A program made the position numbers and the translations under genes. The notes under the pieces were generated by a model, which saw nothing but the letters and a program-made list of their open reading frames with translations, had not been told where the DNA came from and made no database searches. 64,000 bases of DNA from sequence record OZ335959.1, one strand, 5' to 3'. How positions within the stretch are numbered: position 1 is the stretch's first letter; the number at the start of each line of letters is the position of its first letter. The stretch comes from a phage. Shown piece after piece: positions 24,015-29,594 of the stretch.

Positions 24015-24260
24015 TTAACCACCAGTTACTTTCCACAAATCTTCGTTTGCAGTAATCCATGCATCACGTTGATTTTCTTCGTATACAGTAGTATATGCTG
24101 CTTTTTCTGAAGGGAATGTCTGGTAATGAGCGCCAGAAATTTTGTGAACGTCAGAATAAAGAGGGAAAGCTACAGAAATTTCCTTTCCTTCAATTTTCTT
24201 ATTTCCATCTAATTTCTGCTCAAATGTTTTAATATTAACATAACCGCGAGTACTAGCCAT
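24015..24260 (-). CDS. soc: Small outer capsid protein Soc
   Basis: 81-aa ORF MASTRGYVNIKTFEQKLDGNKKIEGKEISVAFPLYSDVHKISGAHYQTF... recognised as T4 Soc. Confidence 0.92.
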   Translation of the reverse strand: MASTRGYVNIKTFEQKLDGNKKIEGKEISVAFPLYSDVHKISGAHYQTFPSEKAAYTTVYEENQRDAWITANEDLWKVTGG

Positions 24261-24290: not shown

Positions 24291-24298
24291 TATTTATA
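24291..24298 (-). promoter_or_regulatory. Late promoter (TATAAATA) for soc
   Basis: Exact TATAAATA on minus strand about 30 nt upstream of the soc ATG, with GGAG SD between. Confidence 0.6.
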
Positions 24299-24332: not shown

Positions 24333-24851
24333 TTAATAACCTCGGTCTTGACGAGCGAAGTTTTCAGCATTTTTCAGATAATAAAGTTTAAAGATTTCTT
24401 CAGCCGTAAGACCGAGACCTTGGAACATGTTCAGAACGAAATGAAGAATATCAATCATTTCGAATTTAATTTCCAACTGGTCTTGTGGAGATAAGTCAGT
24501 AATCAGAGTTTCACGACGTTCACCGTGTTGCGACTTCCAAGGCTTCCATACAGCAGATGCATCTTTTTCGCCATTGCTCATACCACCAAGAGAAGTCAGA
24601 AGTTCGCGGAATTCATCATCAATATAATCTTTCTGATTACGCAGCCAATCAACAACTTCACCTGCAGTAGCCAAATCATCAGGATGACGGTTATATTCAG
24701 GTTTATCTTTAGCTAAACGAACTTGCAGAGATTTCTGCATATCAAGCATAACCTGCAGCGGGTCTTTTTCATCACCGAGAATATCCCAGTATTCATTTTG
24801 AGCTTTATCAGCGCCTTCAATTAGTTGACTACATTCGTTAAAGTATGCCAT
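24333..24851 (-). CDS. 56: dCTP pyrophosphatase gp56 (MazG-like)
   Basis: Track ORF trimmed to MAYFNECSQLIEGADKAQNEYWDILGDEKDPLQVMLDM... (about 172 aa), matching T4 gp56 as I recall it. Confidence 0.85.
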   Translation of the reverse strand: MAYFNECSQLIEGADKAQNEYWDILGDEKDPLQVMLDMQKSLQVRLAKDKPEYNRHPDDLATAGEVVDWLRNQKDYIDDEFRELLTSLGGMSNGEKDASAVWKPWKSQHGERRETLITDLSPQDQLEIKFEMIDILHFVLNMFQGLGLTAEEIFKLYYLKNAENFARQDRGY

Positions 24852-24922
24852 TATTTTTCCTTTCAATTCATGGGTTAGTAGATTAATTATACAATAAATA
24901 TATAAAGCAATAAGGAGGACAT

Positions 24923-25123
24923 ATGGTACAAAAATTAATGGCACTTGTTAATGCCATAAAAGGTAATAAAAAACGTATAGCTTTTACTATTTCTGCTATG
25001 GTAGGAATTTTACTCTGGAATTTTGTTTTATCACCAATTGCTATTGCTCATGGTGTTAATATTCCGGTAATTACTCTTGATACATTCGTAGATTTAGCAT
25101 TTGCTTTGGTTGGGTTAATTTAA
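24923..25123 (+). CDS. Small predicted membrane protein, 66 aa (plus strand)
   Basis: ATG preceded by AAGGAGG at 4-nt spacing; hydrophobic segments; convergent with gene 61, stops overlap. Confidence 0.5.
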   Translation: MVQKLMALVNAIKGNKKRIAFTISAMVGILLWNFVLSPIAIAHGVNIPVITLDTFVDLAFALVGLI

Positions 25124-26148
25124 ATCTTAGCATATTTAGATAGCCGCATTTTAGCCATCAACCCTTGAGCAATATTATTTTTCATATATTCCATAATTTG
25201 TTCAGGGGTTGCACCTTCCTTTCTAATCATATCATTAACATCTTTTGATTTCCAGGGAGATTTGTCCCAAAACATAACCCTTTCTCCTGCATCAACTAAT
25301 TTAGTCATTCGTTTAATAGTGTCAGGGTGACGAGGTTCATTATCTAAAACCCATACACGTCTATCTTTAAATGGAACAATTTCTAGGTCTAATTGACCAC
25401 CCGTAATAGCTATACCATTTTCAATAAAAAGTGAATCTATAGGTCCTTCTAGAACATATACATCACCATCTTTGACTCGTTCAACTCCATAGATTTTTGT
25501 TGCCTCAGGATAAGCTTTGATGGTGATATATTTTTGGGGAGCATCTTTCTTTAATGCACGTCCTTGAAAAGACTCAGCTTTTCCGTTAGCATTATAAATT
25601 GGAATAACAAGACGAGGCTCGGGCATTTCCTTTTTATATGTTCCTGGCGCTATACTATTAACTAATTTAGGCCATTCGGTTGTAAACCAAAGATATTTCC
25701 ATTTATTCTTTGGAATACAACGAGCTTTTACATATTTTATAATTGGATGGTCTTCCGCCAGTTTATCTAATCTAATGCATGACGGAAGAGATTTAATTAT
25801 TTTCTTCTCAGGTTGTTTAGGAAGTTCTTTAGGTTTTTCTACTGGACGACTTTTACCTTTTTCTTTTCTTATTTCAAAGATATACTCACGATATAAATCA
25901 GGTTCAAACTCCTTTAAATATATTCCAATTGGTGCATGATAGTTACAGTTATAACAATGAATATTTCCTTCATTATTATCGCCATAATACCATCCACGGG
26001 CTTTATTTTGATCGGTTTTTGAATCTCCACAAACAGGACATCTAAACCGTAATTTAAAAGTTGAACTATTATTTACTTGTGCGAATTTAGGTAAATGAGC
26101 TAATGCACGGTATGCAAACTCATTATCAATCCAAGGTATTGATGACAT
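25120..26148 (-). CDS. 61: DNA primase gp61
   Basis: 342-aa ORF with N-terminal zinc ribbon CPVCGDS...CYNC and TOPRIM-like EGPIDSLF; T4 gp61 length. Confidence 0.9.
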   Translation of the reverse strand: MSSIPWIDNEFAYRALAHLPKFAQVNNSSTFKLRFRCPVCGDSKTDQNKARGWYYGDNNEGNIHCYNCNYHAPIGIYLKEFEPDLYREYIFEIRKEKGKSRPVEKPKELPKQPEKKIIKSLPSCIRLDKLAEDHPIIKYVKARCIPKNKWKYLWFTTEWPKLVNSIAPGTYKKEMPEPRLVIPIYNANGKAESFQGRALKKDAPQKYITIKAYPEATKIYGVERVKDGDVYVLEGPIDSLFIENGIAITGGQLDLEIVPFKDRRVWVLDNEPRHPDTIKRMTKLVDAGERVMFWDKSPWKSKDVNDMIRKEGATPEQIMEYMKNNIAQGLMAKMRLSKYAKI

Positions 26149-26150
26149 TT

Positions 26151-26315
26151 TTACTCTTCTTTTTCTTTAGATTCCTCTTTTTTCTTTTTAGGAATCTGTT
26201 CAGGACCTTTATTTACTACAGCGCCTGACGTTGTTCCAGTGGAGATATTTTCAGGATTACCACCTGAATCTCCAGCTACCATATCTTCTTTGATAAATTC
26301 TTTATATGTTTTCAT
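26151..26315 (-). CDS. Small basic/acidic protein, 54 aa (61.1 position)
   Basis: Hand-translated MKTYKEFIKEDMVAGDSGGNPENISTGTTSGAVVNKGPEQIPKKKKEESKEKEE; stop abuts gene 61 start. Confidence 0.5.
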   Translation of the reverse strand: MKTYKEFIKEDMVAGDSGGNPENISTGTTSGAVVNKGPEQIPKKKKEESKEKEE

Positions 26316-26316
26316 A

Positions 26317-26943
26317 TTAACCTCTATTCATAAAAGCATTAAAAATTTGGTCATCAATAGAAACATTTACTTTAGACTGTTTTTCTGATGGTAATTCATA
26401 TCCACATATTACAATTTTGTGATCAATATCAAAATACACAGAAGCAATATGATTAATGATGTTTTCAGTAAAGTCTAAATCAACATCAATATCTTTTTGA
26501 CCACAGCCCAAAGGATAAATAATGCGAGTAATTCGATTATCTTTAACAAAGATTCCACCGATATACTCTGTGCTGCGTTTAAAGTCTACACGCCGACGAA
26601 ATGAAAAATATTCAGGCTCTTTATGAGCTCGGCTCATAGGACACAACGAGTAACTAGAATAAGAGATGTCAAATCCTACGCCTTCAATATGAGCCAAAGT
26701 ATTACGATTAAACCAATTATAATCGTACGCCAAATCCATTAGATTATAATATGTAAAAGGCACCGGATTAACATCATTAGTCACAAGCACGTAATTAGCA
26801 ATTGCTATAATTTCATTGTTTTTAACGAATACAAACCGTGATTGATGGGAATGACCTGGACCCGCGTTTTCACGATTAATGATATAACACTGGGCACCTT
26901 TATATTTGTATGTATCTTTGCACTTGTGCATTTGATAGAGCAT
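26317..26943 (-). CDS. Hypothetical protein, 208 aa (61.2 position; possible anti-defence factor)
   Basis: Track ORF at the position and length of T4 61.2. Confidence 0.6.
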   Translation of the reverse strand: MLYQMHKCKDTYKYKGAQCYIINRENAGPGHSHQSRFVFVKNNEIIAIANYVLVTNDVNPVPFTYYNLMDLAYDYNWFNRNTLAHIEGVGFDISYSSYSLCPMSRAHKEPEYFSFRRRVDFKRSTEYIGGIFVKDNRITRIIYPLGCGQKDIDVDLDFTENIINHIASVYFDIDHKIVICGYELPSEKQSKVNVSIDDQIFNAFMNRG

Positions 26944-27236
26944 TATTCACCTACCACTTCAGCGATGATATTTTTATTATTAAAGTTTTTATCGCAATAC
27001 AGAACATAATTATACTGCATTACACCACCAGACTTAAGCTGTTTTTGTACTTCAGCTTTCATTTCAGGACGGTCACGCTCAACAATATTCATAATATCTG
27101 CTTCAATTTGAGTTTCAACTTCAGTCTGATCTGCAGTCATAGACCATTCACACAAATCTTTGTCATAACCCGCCATAGCAGGCTGAGCAGCACAAGAAGA
27201 TAAAGCAAAAATTGTAGCAAAGATAAATTTTTTCAT
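26943..27236 (-). CDS. sp: Spackle periplasmic protein Sp (superinfection exclusion; lysozyme inhibitor)
   Basis: 97-aa ORF with signal peptide MKKFIFATIFALSSCAAQPAMAGY; T4 Sp length and position. Confidence 0.75.
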   Translation of the reverse strand: MKKFIFATIFALSSCAAQPAMAGYDKDLCEWSMTADQTEVETQIEADIMNIVERDRPEMKAEVQKQLKSGGVMQYNYVLYCDKNFNNKNIIAEVVGE

Positions 27237-27294
27237 GATAATCTCCTCAGTAGTTTATGTTTATAGTATCTCAATTTCTAATAAAAGTAAACAG

Positions 27295-27594
27295 CTATTT
27301 TAAAACTTCTGCATAATCACATGTTACAAACTGTTTCTCTAACTTGACGATTTTACGAAAGTATCTTTTGCATTGACGAATCTGTCGCTTCGTAGGGCGC
27401 ACAGCAAACTTAATAAATTCCACTCGACCAAATGGAGGGCTTTCTTCTGCCGGAATATCTAATACTAATTCCCACGTATCTGCAATAAGTGCTTTGAATT
27501 GAGTATTTTTCCTGACATTATACGAAGTAGGTTTAAATAAAACAATATGCATATTATCCTCGGCAATCCACTTCACATACTTTCTTGTCATCAA
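27295..27594 (-). CDS. Hypothetical basic protein, 99 aa (61.4 position)
   Basis: Track ORF between sp and dmd. Confidence 0.55.
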   Translation of the reverse strand: MMTRKYVKWIAEDNMHIVLFKPTSYNVRKNTQFKALIADTWELVLDIPAEESPPFGRVEFIKFAVRPTKRQIRQCKRYFRKIVKLEKQFVTCDYAEVLK

Positions 27595-27736
27595 TGAAAG
27601 CTTTAACTAGCGCTTTATTAACTTCAGCATATTGAGTAGTAGCCCATTGAACGTCATCTTTCATCATTGTGATTTCTTTAGCAAACATGCTTTCGTTCTT
27701 AAACCACCCCATAAAAACTACCTTTACCAATTCCAT
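27554..27736 (-). CDS. dmd: Dmd antitoxin (inhibitor of host RnlA/LsoA RNase toxins)
   Basis: 60-aa ORF MELVKVVFMGWFKNESMFAKEITMMKDDVQWATTQYAEVNKALVKAFIDDKKVCEVDCRG recognised as T4 Dmd. Confidence 0.85.
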   Translation of the reverse strand: MELVKVVFMGWFKNESMFAKEITMMKDDVQWATTQYAEVNKALVKAFIDDKKVCEVDCRG

Positions 27737-27765
27737 AACAATCTCCTCATTTAACCAACAAGACT

Positions 27766-27795
27766 ACTATACCATAGTCTTGTCAGCTTGTAAAC
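27766..27795 (-). promoter_or_regulatory. Early promoter upstream of dmd
   Basis: Minus strand GTTTAC, 18 bp, TATAGT (TGGTATAGT); -35 overlaps gene 41 stop. Confidence 0.55.
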
Positions 27796-29222
27796 TAAAA
27801 TTTTAATTCATTTGCCAAAGCATCTAACTGAGCCCGAGCGGATTCGTTTCTTTGATAGCGATTCTGTTCAGCCTGAATCTGCTGTGAACCTGCTACTTCG
27901 TTCACTTCGGTTGGAGTAGAATCTTGTTCAATTTCTACCCATTTCTGATTTCCTTTTTGAACACCCATCAAAAACTTATTCCATTTATTCTTATCACCAT
28001 ATCGTGATTTGATTTGCTTAATGAGTTGTTGTTCAGCAGCTGCTAACTCCTCGGTTTCAATGACCGCAAGCATAAAATCAGCTGTTGCTGGAAGACCGGC
28101 AGATTCTGCAATATCGCTCATGTTAACATCAGAAGAATCCCAAGCTTGCTTACCAACCTGTGCTGCGGTCCAAAGAACAGTTTCAGTTTCAACAGCCAGA
28201 GCACGCAATTCTTCTGCGATGGCTTTAACAGTTGTGTAACTATTTTCTGAATAAACTCTGATGCGGCAAGATTTACAAATACCTAGATAGTCAACAATAA
28301 TGATTGTTGGAACAAAATTCTTCTTGAGCTTCAATTCATTCAAGAGAGACCTGAATGTATTAGCGTCTGCTCCACCAGTAGGATACTGTTTAACGATTAA
28401 ACGACCGAGAGTAGATTTCTCACGCCATTTTTCCATTTTTCCTTTATATTCAGCGTAAGAAATATGCCCATCATCAATGTCATCAAGAGAAACATCAAGC
28501 ATATTAGCATCAATACGCTTAGCACAGACTTCTTCTGCCATTTCCATGGAAATGTAAAGAACATTATGTCCGAGCTGCAAATAATCTGCTGCCAATGAAC
28601 ACAATCCTAATGACTTACCGACGTTAACACCAGCCATTAAAACGTTCAGTGTTCCAGTTTCAGCTCCGCCTTTAGTAATTTTATTTAGAATTTTGAGTTT
28701 AAATGGAACCTTACGAGCTTTATTCATATAAGATAGCCAACGTGCTTCGTAGTCATCCATCCAATCATGACCAACGTAACTATCAAATGAAATTGATAAT
28801 GCTTGACGCATGATGTCAGGAATAGCACCTACATCTGGCATTTTCTTATTTCGTTTTTCCGGAGGAAGCTCAGCATTAGTTTGAATTTCAATTATTTTAG
28901 ACGTAGCATTAAACATCGCCCTTTGCTGAACATATTTTTCTGTTTCTTTTACTAACCAGCTGTGGTCTTCTGGAGAATCGGCTAGTTTCGAAATAAGTGT
29001 TTTTACACCAGAATATTCTGTTTCAGTAAATGAACTATTTTCTAATGCAACATTTAACGCATTAATAGATGGAACGCTATGGTACTCATTAACATGAGAT
29101 TTAATTAATTTGAATGTATTTTTAGCTGGACCACTTTCAAAATATTCTGAATCCATATATGGCCAAACTTTTGAAAAATAAGCTTGATCAAATATGAGAT
29201 GAGAAAGAATAATTTCTACCAC
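27795..29222 (-). CDS. 41: Replicative DNA helicase gp41 (DnaB-like)
   Basis: 475-aa ORF with Walker A GVNVGKS and DnaB-family architecture; T4 gp41 length. Confidence 0.92.
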   Translation of the reverse strand: MVEIILSHLIFDQAYFSKVWPYMDSEYFESGPAKNTFKLIKSHVNEYHSVPSINALNVALENSSFTETEYSGVKTLISKLADSPEDHSWLVKETEKYVQQRAMFNATSKIIEIQTNAELPPEKRNKKMPDVGAIPDIMRQALSISFDSYVGHDWMDDYEARWLSYMNKARKVPFKLKILNKITKGGAETGTLNVLMAGVNVGKSLGLCSLAADYLQLGHNVLYISMEMAEEVCAKRIDANMLDVSLDDIDDGHISYAEYKGKMEKWREKSTLGRLIVKQYPTGGADANTFRSLLNELKLKKNFVPTIIIVDYLGICKSCRIRVYSENSYTTVKAIAEELRALAVETETVLWTAAQVGKQAWDSSDVNMSDIAESAGLPATADFMLAVIETEELAAAEQQLIKQIKSRYGDKNKWNKFLMGVQKGNQKWVEIEQDSTPTEVNEVAGSQQIQAEQNRYQRNESARAQLDALANELKF

Positions 29223-29231
29223 ACTTACTCC

Positions 29232-29594
29232 TTAAAAGAATTTAAATTTTTTCTTTGACCTTTTATTAAATGCATCTTGTAGTTGCATTGTAATACATTT
29301 TTCTACATGAGGAGCTAACTCAGCTTTTCTTTCTTGGTCAAGAACAGCAAAGTCCATTACGACTTTTCCATCAACCCAATCTAATTTTGTCACATACACA
29401 ATGTGTGTAGAACCGTCTTCTAGTTTAATGACAATCTCCTGGATAACATTTTCCATGGCAGATTTAATTATCTTAAGAGATTCATTAAAAAGACGTTCTT
29501 TTCTTTCTTCTTCCCCCTCCGAAGAGGGGGATTCATCGATAATTTCTAGATCTAAATCTAAATCATCTTTATTCATTAAATTCTTCCATATCAC
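29232..29594 (-). CDS. 40: Acidic protein, 120 aa (gene 40 position)
   Basis: Track ORF between uvsX and 41, as T4 gene 40. Confidence 0.55.
   Translation of the reverse strand: MIWKNLMNKDDLDLDLEIIDESPSSEGEEERKERLFNESLKIIKSAMENVIQEIVIKLEDGSTHIVYVTKLDWVDGKVVMDFAVLDQERKAELAPHVEKCITMQLQDAFNKRSKKKFKFF

Follow-up and report, generated by a model that had tools for sequence, protein, structure and literature searches.

What do the five small open reading frames packed between the helicase gene 41 (27795-29222) and the primase gene 61 (25120-26148) of the phage recorded as OZ335959.1 encode, and does any of them go beyond what has been described for this locus in T4-like phages? The window, i.e., the whole stretch of 64,000 nucleotides that was analyzed, comes from a member of the genus Tequatrovirus with DNA identity of up to 98.8% to Shigella and Escherichia T4-like phages. 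The interval at 26151-27736 lies on the minus strand, and its genes follow in the order dmd, 61.4 (tifA), sp, 61.2 (adfA), and 61.1, with both the order and the spacing identical to those of T4 (Table 1). All five ORFs show strong matches with known families (Pfam; PHROG in the case of 61.1), and the identity of their products to the T4 counterparts is 95–98%. At least 80% of the 4.1-kb interval is present in 493 phage records. Family matches and synteny with T4 thus agree with the original prediction, which placed five small genes between helicase 41 and primase 61. The alignments that it proposed as a check on the 61.4 and 61.2 products also bore it out (83/85 and 197/208 identical residues with T4; 57% and 69% identity with RB69).

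Table 1. Genes and promoters of the interval between genes 41 and 61 (positions in the window).
Feature	Coordinates	Strand	Description
dmd (61.5)	27554..27736	-	60 aa; Pfam PF17587, 9e-46; identity to T4 59/60
tifA (61.4)	27295..27552	-	85 aa, pI 9.8; DUF7279, 1.9e-20; identity to T4 83/85
sp (61.3, Spackle)	26943..27236	-	97 aa; Pfam PF25676, 6.8e-45; identity to T4 95/97
adfA (61.2)	26317..26943	-	208 aa; Pfam PF23813, 1.3e-133; identity to T4 197/208
61.1	26151..26315	-	54 aa, uncharacterised; PHROG 1823, 7e-34; identity to T4 52/54
Early promoter upstream of dmd	27766..27795	-	Best match of the promoter scan; elements identical to T4
Second early-type promoter, tifA-sp spacer	27263..27292	-	Proposed from sequence; conserved in T4; 8/12

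It is highly probable (about 0.93) that the interval corresponds, in a Tequatrovirus version, to the early-gene cluster between genes 41 and 61 of T4, the region that Srikant, Guegler and Laub called the "anti-TA island" in 2022 (PMC9391042). The arrangement found here, with gene 41, the dmd-tifA pair, the sp-adfA-61.1 group, and gene 61 in succession and an early promoter before dmd, is that of the island. Because the region was named in 2022, the finding of the cluster is already known; four of its five genes are covered by publications, and there is nothing new in the cluster as it was first described. The value of the result for the cluster lies in annotation and prediction, and the alleles are close to those of T4. 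The cluster is ordinary for T4-like phages, save for the uncharacterised 54-residue product of 61.1, which resembles a piece of a capsid protein.

As for transcription, the cluster had been credited with its own early promoter at 27766-27795. This promoter is upheld by its position and its conservation in T4, but two early-type promoters are present rather than one. The first promoter consists of G-TTTACA, 17 nt, and TG-n-TATAGT (10/12 consensus matches, with the TG extension); it tops the sigma-70-like scan of 25000-29400, and its leading G is the final base of the gene 41 stop codon. Its elements and all sequence upstream are identical to those of T4, and of 71 aligned bases only one, in the leader downstream of these elements, is substituted. 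Since the 17 promoter-like matches observed in the scanned region do not exceed the number in shuffled sequences (17.6), the support for this promoter comes from position and conservation and not from the count. An early T4 promoter upstream of dmd has been described previously (PMC9391042). The second promoter is located in the 58-nt tifA-sp spacer and consists of GTTTAC (27292-27287), 17 nt, and TACTAT (27268-27263). It is conserved with respect to T4, the one difference being a 2-bp deletion adjacent to the -10 element, and in the same region the stop codon of tifA differs from that of T4 (TAG versus TAA). The evidence for it is weaker than for the first one because its score, 8/12, falls under the scan threshold; "a promoter downstream of tifA" is mentioned in PMC9391042. 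Host RNA polymerase would transcribe the cluster from the two early promoters right after infection. The first would give a dmd-tifA bicistron, and sp-adfA-61.1 are probably driven by the second, with transcription probably running on into the primase gene 61. A search for a late promoter (TATAAATA) in 26100-27900 found none; the nearest minus-strand match to TATAAATA is located at 24291-24298, upstream of soc.

The identification of the first gene of the cluster as dmd was confirmed by a full-length match with the Pfam profile (residues 1-60 of 60), by a single substitution relative to T4 (T19A), and by similarity to the PDB entry 5HY3_B, "Antitoxin Dmd" (9.5e-37). As an antitoxin mimic, the Dmd protein itself inhibits two endoribonuclease toxins, RnlA and LsoA (PMC9391042, PMC3014915). 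The Dmd of the analyzed phage would bind these RNases directly, standing in for their unstable antitoxins, and by analogy the phage should be resistant to rnlAB and lsoAB, as T4 is.

The suggested link between T4 61.4 and escape from toxIN proved correct, since 61.4 is tifA both by sequence and according to published data (PMC9391042, PMC10853763). The gene encodes a ToxN inhibitor discovered by evolving T4 on toxIN (PMC9391042); TifA binds RNA and inhibits ToxN, a type III toxin, by a mechanism given in PMC10853763. The product of the phage gene matches PHROG 2375 at 4.4e-38, in addition to Pfam DUF7279 (PF23945). It had been described as a basic protein of 99 aa; the basic character stands, but the real protein comprises 85 aa, beginning at the ATG at 27552, which is preceded by GAGGA. 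The longer product comes from the mechanical ORF list, in which translation starts at a TTG at 27594. This ORF (27295-27594) was rejected, as the TTG is not accompanied by a Shine-Dalgarno sequence and the ORF overlaps dmd by 41 nt. A 99-aa protein can hardly be correct also in view of the profile matches, which span residues 15-84 (PHROG 2375) and 32-82 (Pfam) of the ORF; moreover, the T4 annotation gives 85 aa, the experiments likewise used 85 aa (PMC9391042), and the RB69 homologue aligns starting at the ATG. With the ATG start, tifA follows the dmd stop codon after a 1-nt gap, as in T4, and the two genes form one operon. The region 27295-27552 is to be annotated as tifA, 85 aa.

The basic residues of the central RNA-binding cluster of TifA (K55, R56, R59) are all present; in PMC10853763, the mutant with all three replaced by alanine served as the RNA-binding control. 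The TifA proteins of T4, T2, and T6, which are more than 96% identical among themselves, rescue ToxN toxicity (PMC10853763), and from these we infer inhibition of ToxN in vivo for the analyzed phage. Its TifA would bind ToxN together with RNA, trapping the toxin in a large ribonucleoprotein, for the most part on 16S rRNA, and phage transcripts would therefore escape cutting. Relative to T4, the protein carries P10S and I83V, and F41, the weak T4-type allele, is common to both, which by analogy predicts weak, T4-like potency. A single-copy T4-type tifA beats only chromosomal toxIN and not plasmid-borne toxIN (PMC9391042); the analyzed phage should likewise overcome chromosomal but not high-copy toxIN. 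Searches of PDB sequences for TifA and AdfA found no solved relatives of either protein.

The product of sp is the periplasmic Spackle protein, as predicted. The Pfam profile is matched over the full length, only A13S and K53E distinguish the protein from that of T4, and the structures 6X6O (2.2e-61) and 7CN6 correspond to it; the mature crystallised chain of 7CN6 covers residues 23-97, after AMA. The N-terminal sequence contains a Sec signal peptide, with cleavage between MKKFIFATIFALSSCAAQPAMA and G. Spackle acts in the periplasm, where it inhibits gp5, the tail lysozyme carried by superinfecting T-even phages (PMC7677548). The protein of the analyzed phage would be exported to the periplasm and would inhibit this lysozyme when further T-even phages arrive; by analogy, its role is superinfection exclusion, with no anti-TA activity.

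The 208-aa protein had been linked to DarTG. The assignment holds, since 61.2 is adfA according to the profile PF23813, matched full length (residues 1-208 versus positions 1-211 of 211), and to PMC9391042 and PMC11257639; the phenotype fares less well, as deletion of the gene from T4 has no effect on DarTG1 (PMC11257639). AdfA, anti-DarT factor A, binds and neutralises the DarT1 ADP-ribosyltransferase (PMC9391042, PMC11257639). According to the latter paper, DarTG escape was shown for RB69 AdfA(R164H), His at this position enables DarT1 binding, the T4 allele is active in trans, and T4 without adfA stays resistant to DarTG1 even with adfN also deleted. In the analyzed phage, H165 aligns with RB69 R164; this neutralising-type His is common to it and T4, and 11 of the 208 positions are substituted relative to T4. 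AdfA would bind DarT-type DNA ADP-ribosyltransferases, and by analogy it should be able to bind DarT1 and yet be redundant with adfN. The region 26317-26943 is to be annotated as adfA. By the same analogy, the phage should plate like T4 on hosts carrying rnlAB, toxIN, or DarTG1.

The remaining gene, 61.1, is the only part of the cluster that could open something, and it is conserved across T4-like phages. It is found in approximately 1400 phage records, including Escherichia, Klebsiella, Acinetobacter, and Aeromonas phages, and in each of the four distant loci examined the primase gene is its immediate downstream neighbour; in the analyzed phage the 61.1 stop codon is 2 nt ahead of the start of gene 61. 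The protein, which differs from that of T4 by F4Y and I26T, has three parts: the decapeptide MKTYKEFIKE similar to a capsid-targeting sequence (CTS), a core with resemblance to residues 66-97 of gp23, and a Lys/Glu-rich tail. With its Gly/Ser/Thr-rich core and Lys/Glu tail, it is probably a low-complexity, disordered protein. The CTS determinants Y4, F7, I8, and E10 are all present within the N-terminal ~10 aa, and in all six translated frames of the 64-kb window no motif of the MKTYKEFIKE type is present other than that of gp61.1. Among internal head proteins, IPII and IPIII begin with MKTYQEFIAE, which is the same in 8 of 10 positions, and T4 gp61.1 and IPI share the start MKTFKEF; the residues reported as important for targeting (4 and 7) and for processing (8 and 10) in these proteins are all found in gp61.1. 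Internal head proteins are basic and have a mass of 8–21 kDa, whereas the predicted mature gp61.1 has 44 aa and is acidic as a whole (pI 5.0) in spite of a KKKK tract. In addition, the cluster is devoid of a late promoter, unlike what would be expected for CTS-bearing internal head proteins made during prohead assembly.

When aligned with gp23 residues 58-101, the core of gp61.1 keeps the same distance from the Glu cleavage site, and a Glu site of the prohead-protease type is conserved in gp61.1. According to hhalign, the similarity of the core to gp23 has a probability of 93% (P 2.9e-7). The comparison of gp61.1 with gp23 gave 23.1 bits with the body-only HMM and 45.1 bits with the family HMM, versus 10.5 bits or less in 2000 shuffles, and a tblastn search with 61.1 gave one match to gene 23 of Acinetobacter phage 133. 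The profile search of the whole library with the 61.1 family retrieved 51 cluster representatives, comprising short and long forms, and no full-length capsid proteins at E <= 1e-3; for this reason, the link to gp23 rests on the targeted comparisons and the tblastn match. The resemblance is specific to gp23, since gp24, its paralogue, exhibits no similarity with 61.1. Pfam scans of gp61.1 and its long-form homologues gave no match. Unlike gp23, gp61.1 is devoid of the capsid fold (HK97 domains) and ends with a poly-Lys tail.

The presence of CTS-like and gp23*-like sequences in one small protein is the new point. Most likely, gp61.1 is directed to the prohead core and is a substrate of gp21, the prohead protease. 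The N-terminal decapeptide would act as the CTS, and the Glu in register with gp23 Glu65 is a putative gp21 cleavage site, so that the protein would be drawn into proheads and cut after Glu10. The residues following the CTS would copy the N-terminus of mature gp23*, the proposed contact with the gp22 scaffold; the N-terminal part of gp23 sits inside the prohead and has been proposed to contact the scaffolding core (PMC9546572). The resulting Lys-tailed 44-mer could accompany the DNA and be injected, or it could alternatively modulate head assembly. It could also be an early decoy for host sensors of the N-terminal quarter of gp23, e.g., Lit with EF-Tu. The Gol peptide, which we take to be approximately gp23 residues 90-120, would lie just C-terminal of the 61.1-like segment. 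The long forms of 61.1 (CC31, Acinetobacter phages, RB69) would bear a propeptide of ~105 aa as an analogue of the gp23 delta domain. That gp61.1 is an unrecognised small component of the prohead core, with a functional CTS, a copy of the mature gp23* N-terminus, and a gp21 cleavage site, is put forward tentatively; a literature search found no reports of gp61.1 in proheads or virions or of its cleavage by gp21. A signal for head targeting, a protease site, and a stretch copying the N-terminus of the capsid protein are combined in one sequence, which makes the hypothesis directly testable.

The description of the interval as an accessory cluster is apt for its three toxin inhibitors and less so for Sp, which serves superinfection exclusion, and for 61.1, which is conserved widely beside the primase gene. 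In PMC9391042, other genes of the region were suggested as "attractive anti-toxin candidates", and 61.1 is small, expressed early, and shares its locus and transcription with three proven toxin inhibitors. It nevertheless seems improbable that the whole set of five genes, sp and 61.1 among them, is dedicated to countering toxins and that 61.1 is an undiscovered TA inhibitor. Spackle has a different, solved function in the periplasm (PMC7677548), 61.1 is present in the numerous records mentioned above, and over the stretch examined neither tifA nor adfA is annotated at the four distant primase loci. The conserved features of gp61.1 are the capsid-targeting/protease-site motif and the gp23-like core and not an antitoxin-like fold; gp61.1 is probably not an antitoxin.

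The coherence of the region can also be questioned as a whole, since RB69 carries extra genes at three places: gene 41 is followed by two additional ORFs, tifA and sp are separated by imm and imm.1, and ORF033c stands between adfA and a 61.1 that is itself split in two. Different small ORFs precede 61.1 in CC31 and Ac42, and adfA is naturally absent from T2 (PMC11257639). Such variation is consistent with a hyperplastic slot between core replication genes, where the "island" would be a by-product of permissive insertion with no functional unity. We consider this rather unlikely, given that TA-system toxins are inhibited by as many as three of the five products and that the dmd-tifA pair is kept as a unit in T2, T4, T6, and RB69 (PMC9391042). 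The hyperplastic-slot and anti-TA readings are not mutually exclusive. As to the preferred reading, the T4-type early-gene cluster, the word "island" overstates its coherence, because Sp is no anti-TA factor and 61.1 is conserved far beyond the carriers of tifA and adfA.

Functions in the analyzed phage are extrapolated here from T4 and RB69, while gene identities, starts, promoters, and alleles were read from the sequence. In comparison with T4, gene content, order, strand, and intergenic spacing are all equal, and each protein of the cluster carries 1–11 substitutions. T4 has dam downstream of gene 61, whereas the analyzed phage has no dam there. RB69 (Mosigvirus) contains dmd, tifA, sp, adfA, 61.1, and 61 in the same order, with the additional ORFs described above inserted in the interval. 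Its TifA, which is shorter by 15 residues at the C-terminus and has H41, inhibits ToxN more strongly (PMC10853763, PMC9391042). The AdfA of RB69 has R164, the non-neutralising residue (PMC11257639), and its 61.1 is of the long form, divided into two ORFs.

The phage is a T4-like member of the genus Tequatrovirus. In a database search, the 4.1-kb interval spanning genes 61 to 41 matched 655 phage records, 493 of them with coverage of at least 80%, and its closest matches were the Shigella phages ESh16 and ESh34 (98.8% identical). The original prediction had placed five small genes between the two replication genes. Four of their products match Pfam families and one a PHROGs family, and gene set, order and spacing are the same as in the T4 reference record; together with the residue identities to T4, these results confirm the five genes and exclude chance.

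Genes of the 41–61 interval in the window, and 61.1-family genes in loci of compared T4-like phages (L002, L005–L008)
Feature	Coordinates	Strand	Product	Family match	Identical to T4
Gene 41 (helicase)	27795-29222	-	475 aa		
dmd (61.5), first small ORF	27554-27736	-	60 aa	Pfam Dmd, 9e-46	59/60
tifA (61.4), second small ORF	27295-27552	-	85 aa, pI 9.8	Pfam DUF7279, 1.9e-20	83/85
sp (61.3), third small ORF	26943-27236	-	97 aa	Pfam T4_Spackle, 6.8e-45	95/97
adfA (61.2), fourth small ORF	26317-26943	-	208 aa	Pfam AdfA, 1.3e-133	197/208
61.1, fifth small ORF	26151-26315	-	54 aa	PHROGs family 1823, 7e-34	52/54
Gene 61 (primase)	25120-26148	-	342 aa		
61.1-family gene, L005	1177-1641				
61.1-family gene, L006	1183-1635				
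61.1-family gene, L008	1165-1641				
61.1-family gene, L007	1441-1626				
61.1-family gene, L002	5318-5784				

The second product had been described as a 99-aa basic protein; it is basic, but shorter. The 99-aa ORF (27295-27594, minus strand) is a mechanical extension from TTG 27594, inside dmd, which no ribosome-binding site precedes. GAGGA precedes ATG 27552, the PHROG match starts at residue 15 of the 99-aa ORF, gene 61.4 is annotated with 85 aa in T4, and the experimental papers used the 85-aa TifA (PMC9391042). The TTG start was therefore rejected in favor of ATG 27552. In the segment 27263-27297 (minus strand), the tifA stop codon is TAG in the window and TAA in T4.

Functions of all four named genes have already been published. 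The early protein Dmd binds to RnlA and blocks RNase LS, and T4 lacking it loses its middle and late mRNAs to degradation (PMC9391042, PMC3014915). The window Dmd matches 'Antitoxin Dmd' as crystallised in 5HY3 (9.5e-37). The originally noted links of 61.4 to toxIN escape and of 61.2 to DarTG also proved right, and alignment of both products with T4, suggested as a check, gave the identities in the table. During evolution of T4 on toxIN, the dmd–tifA locus was amplified repeatedly, and 61.4, which alone abolished the defence, was renamed tifA (PMC9391042). A single native copy is enough to overcome toxIN on the chromosome, but not on a plasmid (PMC9391042). TifA binds ToxN and RNA, so that ToxN is trapped in a ribonucleoprotein that forms largely on 16S rRNA, and its potency is tuned by residue 41: the F of T4 makes it weak, S or H make it stronger (PMC10853763). 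Since F41 is present in the window TifA and K55, R56 and R59 are kept, it is predicted to behave as T4 TifA.

Spackle acts in the periplasm, where it inhibits the gp5 tail lysozyme, and mediates superinfection exclusion (PMC7677548); the window protein has a signal peptide and matches 6X6O (2.2e-61). As for gene 61.2, it corresponds to adfA (PMC9391042, PMC11257639). In RB69, the single change R164H enables AdfA to bind DarT1, and T-even alleles with His at this position are of the neutralising type (PMC11257639). In the alignment, the RB69 R164 column holds His165 in both the window and T4 AdfA. The T4-type allele may naturally target another DarT (PMC11257639).

The early promoter originally assigned to the cluster (27766-27795; TTTACA, 17 nt, TATAGT, TG extension) stood up as a sequence feature. 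It is the top match of the region in the promoter scan, its elements are identical in T4, and the single substitution in the aligned sequence falls in the leader, downstream of them. The total number of promoter-like matches in the region is not above that in shuffles, so the promoter is credible by position, conservation and the literature, where an early promoter drives dmd–61.4 (PMC9391042). It is not the only candidate: a second early-type promoter (GTTTAC 27292-27287, 17 nt, TACTAT 27268-27263) lies in the tifA–sp spacer, conserved relative to T4 except for a 2-bp (TA) deletion adjoining the -10 element, upstream of sp. 'A promoter downstream of tifA' has been mentioned previously (PMC9391042). 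The second promoter therefore points to two transcription units, dmd–tifA and sp–adfA–61.1, the latter probably continuing into gene 61.

No discussion of 61.1, the sole uncharacterised member of the cluster, was found in the papers searched. Its product begins with MKTYKEFIKE, compared with MKTYQEFIAE for the capsid targeting sequence (CTS) in the T4 ipII and ipIII translations; T4 gp61.1 and T4 IPI both begin with MKTFKEF. According to mutational work, as summed up in PMC9026906, CTS residues 4 and 7 serve targeting and residues 8 and 10 serve processing by the prohead protease gp21; all four are conserved in the window gp61.1. A six-frame translation of the 64 kb revealed no CTS motif elsewhere. 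Three points speak against plain membership of the internal-protein class: predicted mature gp61.1 is acidic overall, the TATAAATA search gave no late promoter in the cluster, and the papers searched contain no report of its packaging.

The core of gp61.1 resembles the major capsid protein gp23. A profile of 17 homologues matched gp23 residues 58-97 in hhalign (93%, P 2.9e-7), and a body-only HMM, with the first ten residues removed, scored 23.1 bits (P 3e-9; maximum of 2000 gp23 shuffles, 10.5 bits). A 1.8-billion-protein library yielded 51 cluster representatives, and a family HMM built from 49 of them reached 45.1 bits (P 5e-16; shuffle maximum 8.5 bits), aligning gp23 residues 68-101. For gp24 there was no comparable match. 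In addition, tblastn of gp61.1 against Acinetobacter phage 133 matched gene 23 itself, and some homologues are automatically labelled 'major capsid domain-containing protein' or 'putative head morphogenesis protein'. Glu10 of gp61.1 aligns exactly with gp23 Glu65, after which gp21 cuts to give mature gp23* (PMC9546572). A Glu stands 1–2 residues before the core in 44/44 anchorable representatives, usually with a hydrophobic residue two positions earlier; this fits a gp21-type site, because T4 head proteins are cleaved C-terminal to Glu after a short motif. The gp23* N-terminus lies inside the immature head, where contact with the scaffolding core has been proposed (PMC9546572). These similarities suggest homology between the gp61.1 core and gp23 residues 66-101, which form the N-terminus of gp23*, and make a prohead-core-targeted, gp21-processed peptide a likelier reading of gp61.1 than an antitoxin.

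The 61.1 family comprises ~1400 phage records with Escherichia, Klebsiella, Acinetobacter, Aeromonas and other hosts, and is spread far beyond tifA or adfA. All four distant loci inspected, from CC31, Ac42, a Lazarusvirus and Aeromonas AS4, have it immediately upstream of the primase gene. Short forms have 50–70 aa; long forms of 130–165 aa, with an extra ~105-aa N-terminal domain (PHROG 2086), are common. The C-terminal tail is variable, the core is not: some Tequatrovirus proteins (T6-type homologues P0002 and P0004) have 62 aa and a differing tail, KKKKRNLKKKKSKNVINTLD, which looks like a frameshift in a poly-A/Lys tract into the gene 61 start region.

Beyond gene 61, T4 has dam, whereas the window carries in its place, between genes 56 and 61, a 66-aa hydrophobic ORF (24923-25123, plus strand) 52% identical to RB69ORF029w, an arrangement common to ~350 Tequatrovirus records. 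Gene 56 (dCTPase; 24333-24944, minus strand) is listed as 203 aa from GTG; it likely starts at the Met within MAYFNEC, which gives ~172 aa and agrees with T4 and RB69. The late-promoter motif TATAAATA occurs 3 times in the window, fewer than the ~10 expected from shuffles. Its sole minus-strand match near the region (24291-24298) is just upstream of the 81-aa ORF of the small outer capsid protein Soc (24015-24260, minus strand).

The five products are thus three toxin inhibitors, one superinfection-exclusion factor and, in 61.1, something else. Besides the correction of the tifA start, the promoter in the tifA–sp spacer and the allele assignments, the only new lead, a modest one, is the hypothesis of gp61.1 as a CTS plus a gp23 mimic. 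RB69 has the same backbone in the 41–61 interval, interrupted by additional genes at three positions: gene 41 is followed by two ORFs, imm and imm.1 separate tifA from sp, and one more ORF separates adfA from 61.1; 61.1, there a long form, is itself divided between two ORFs that overlap (ORF032c and 61.1). In T2, adfA is naturally absent (PMC11257639). The slot is thus plastic and gathers accessory genes. The region was termed a possible 'anti-TA island' in a 2022 eLife paper (PMC9391042), so the original interpretation is supported and already in the literature: the finding, correct and well read, is the known anti-TA island of T4 in a close relative.
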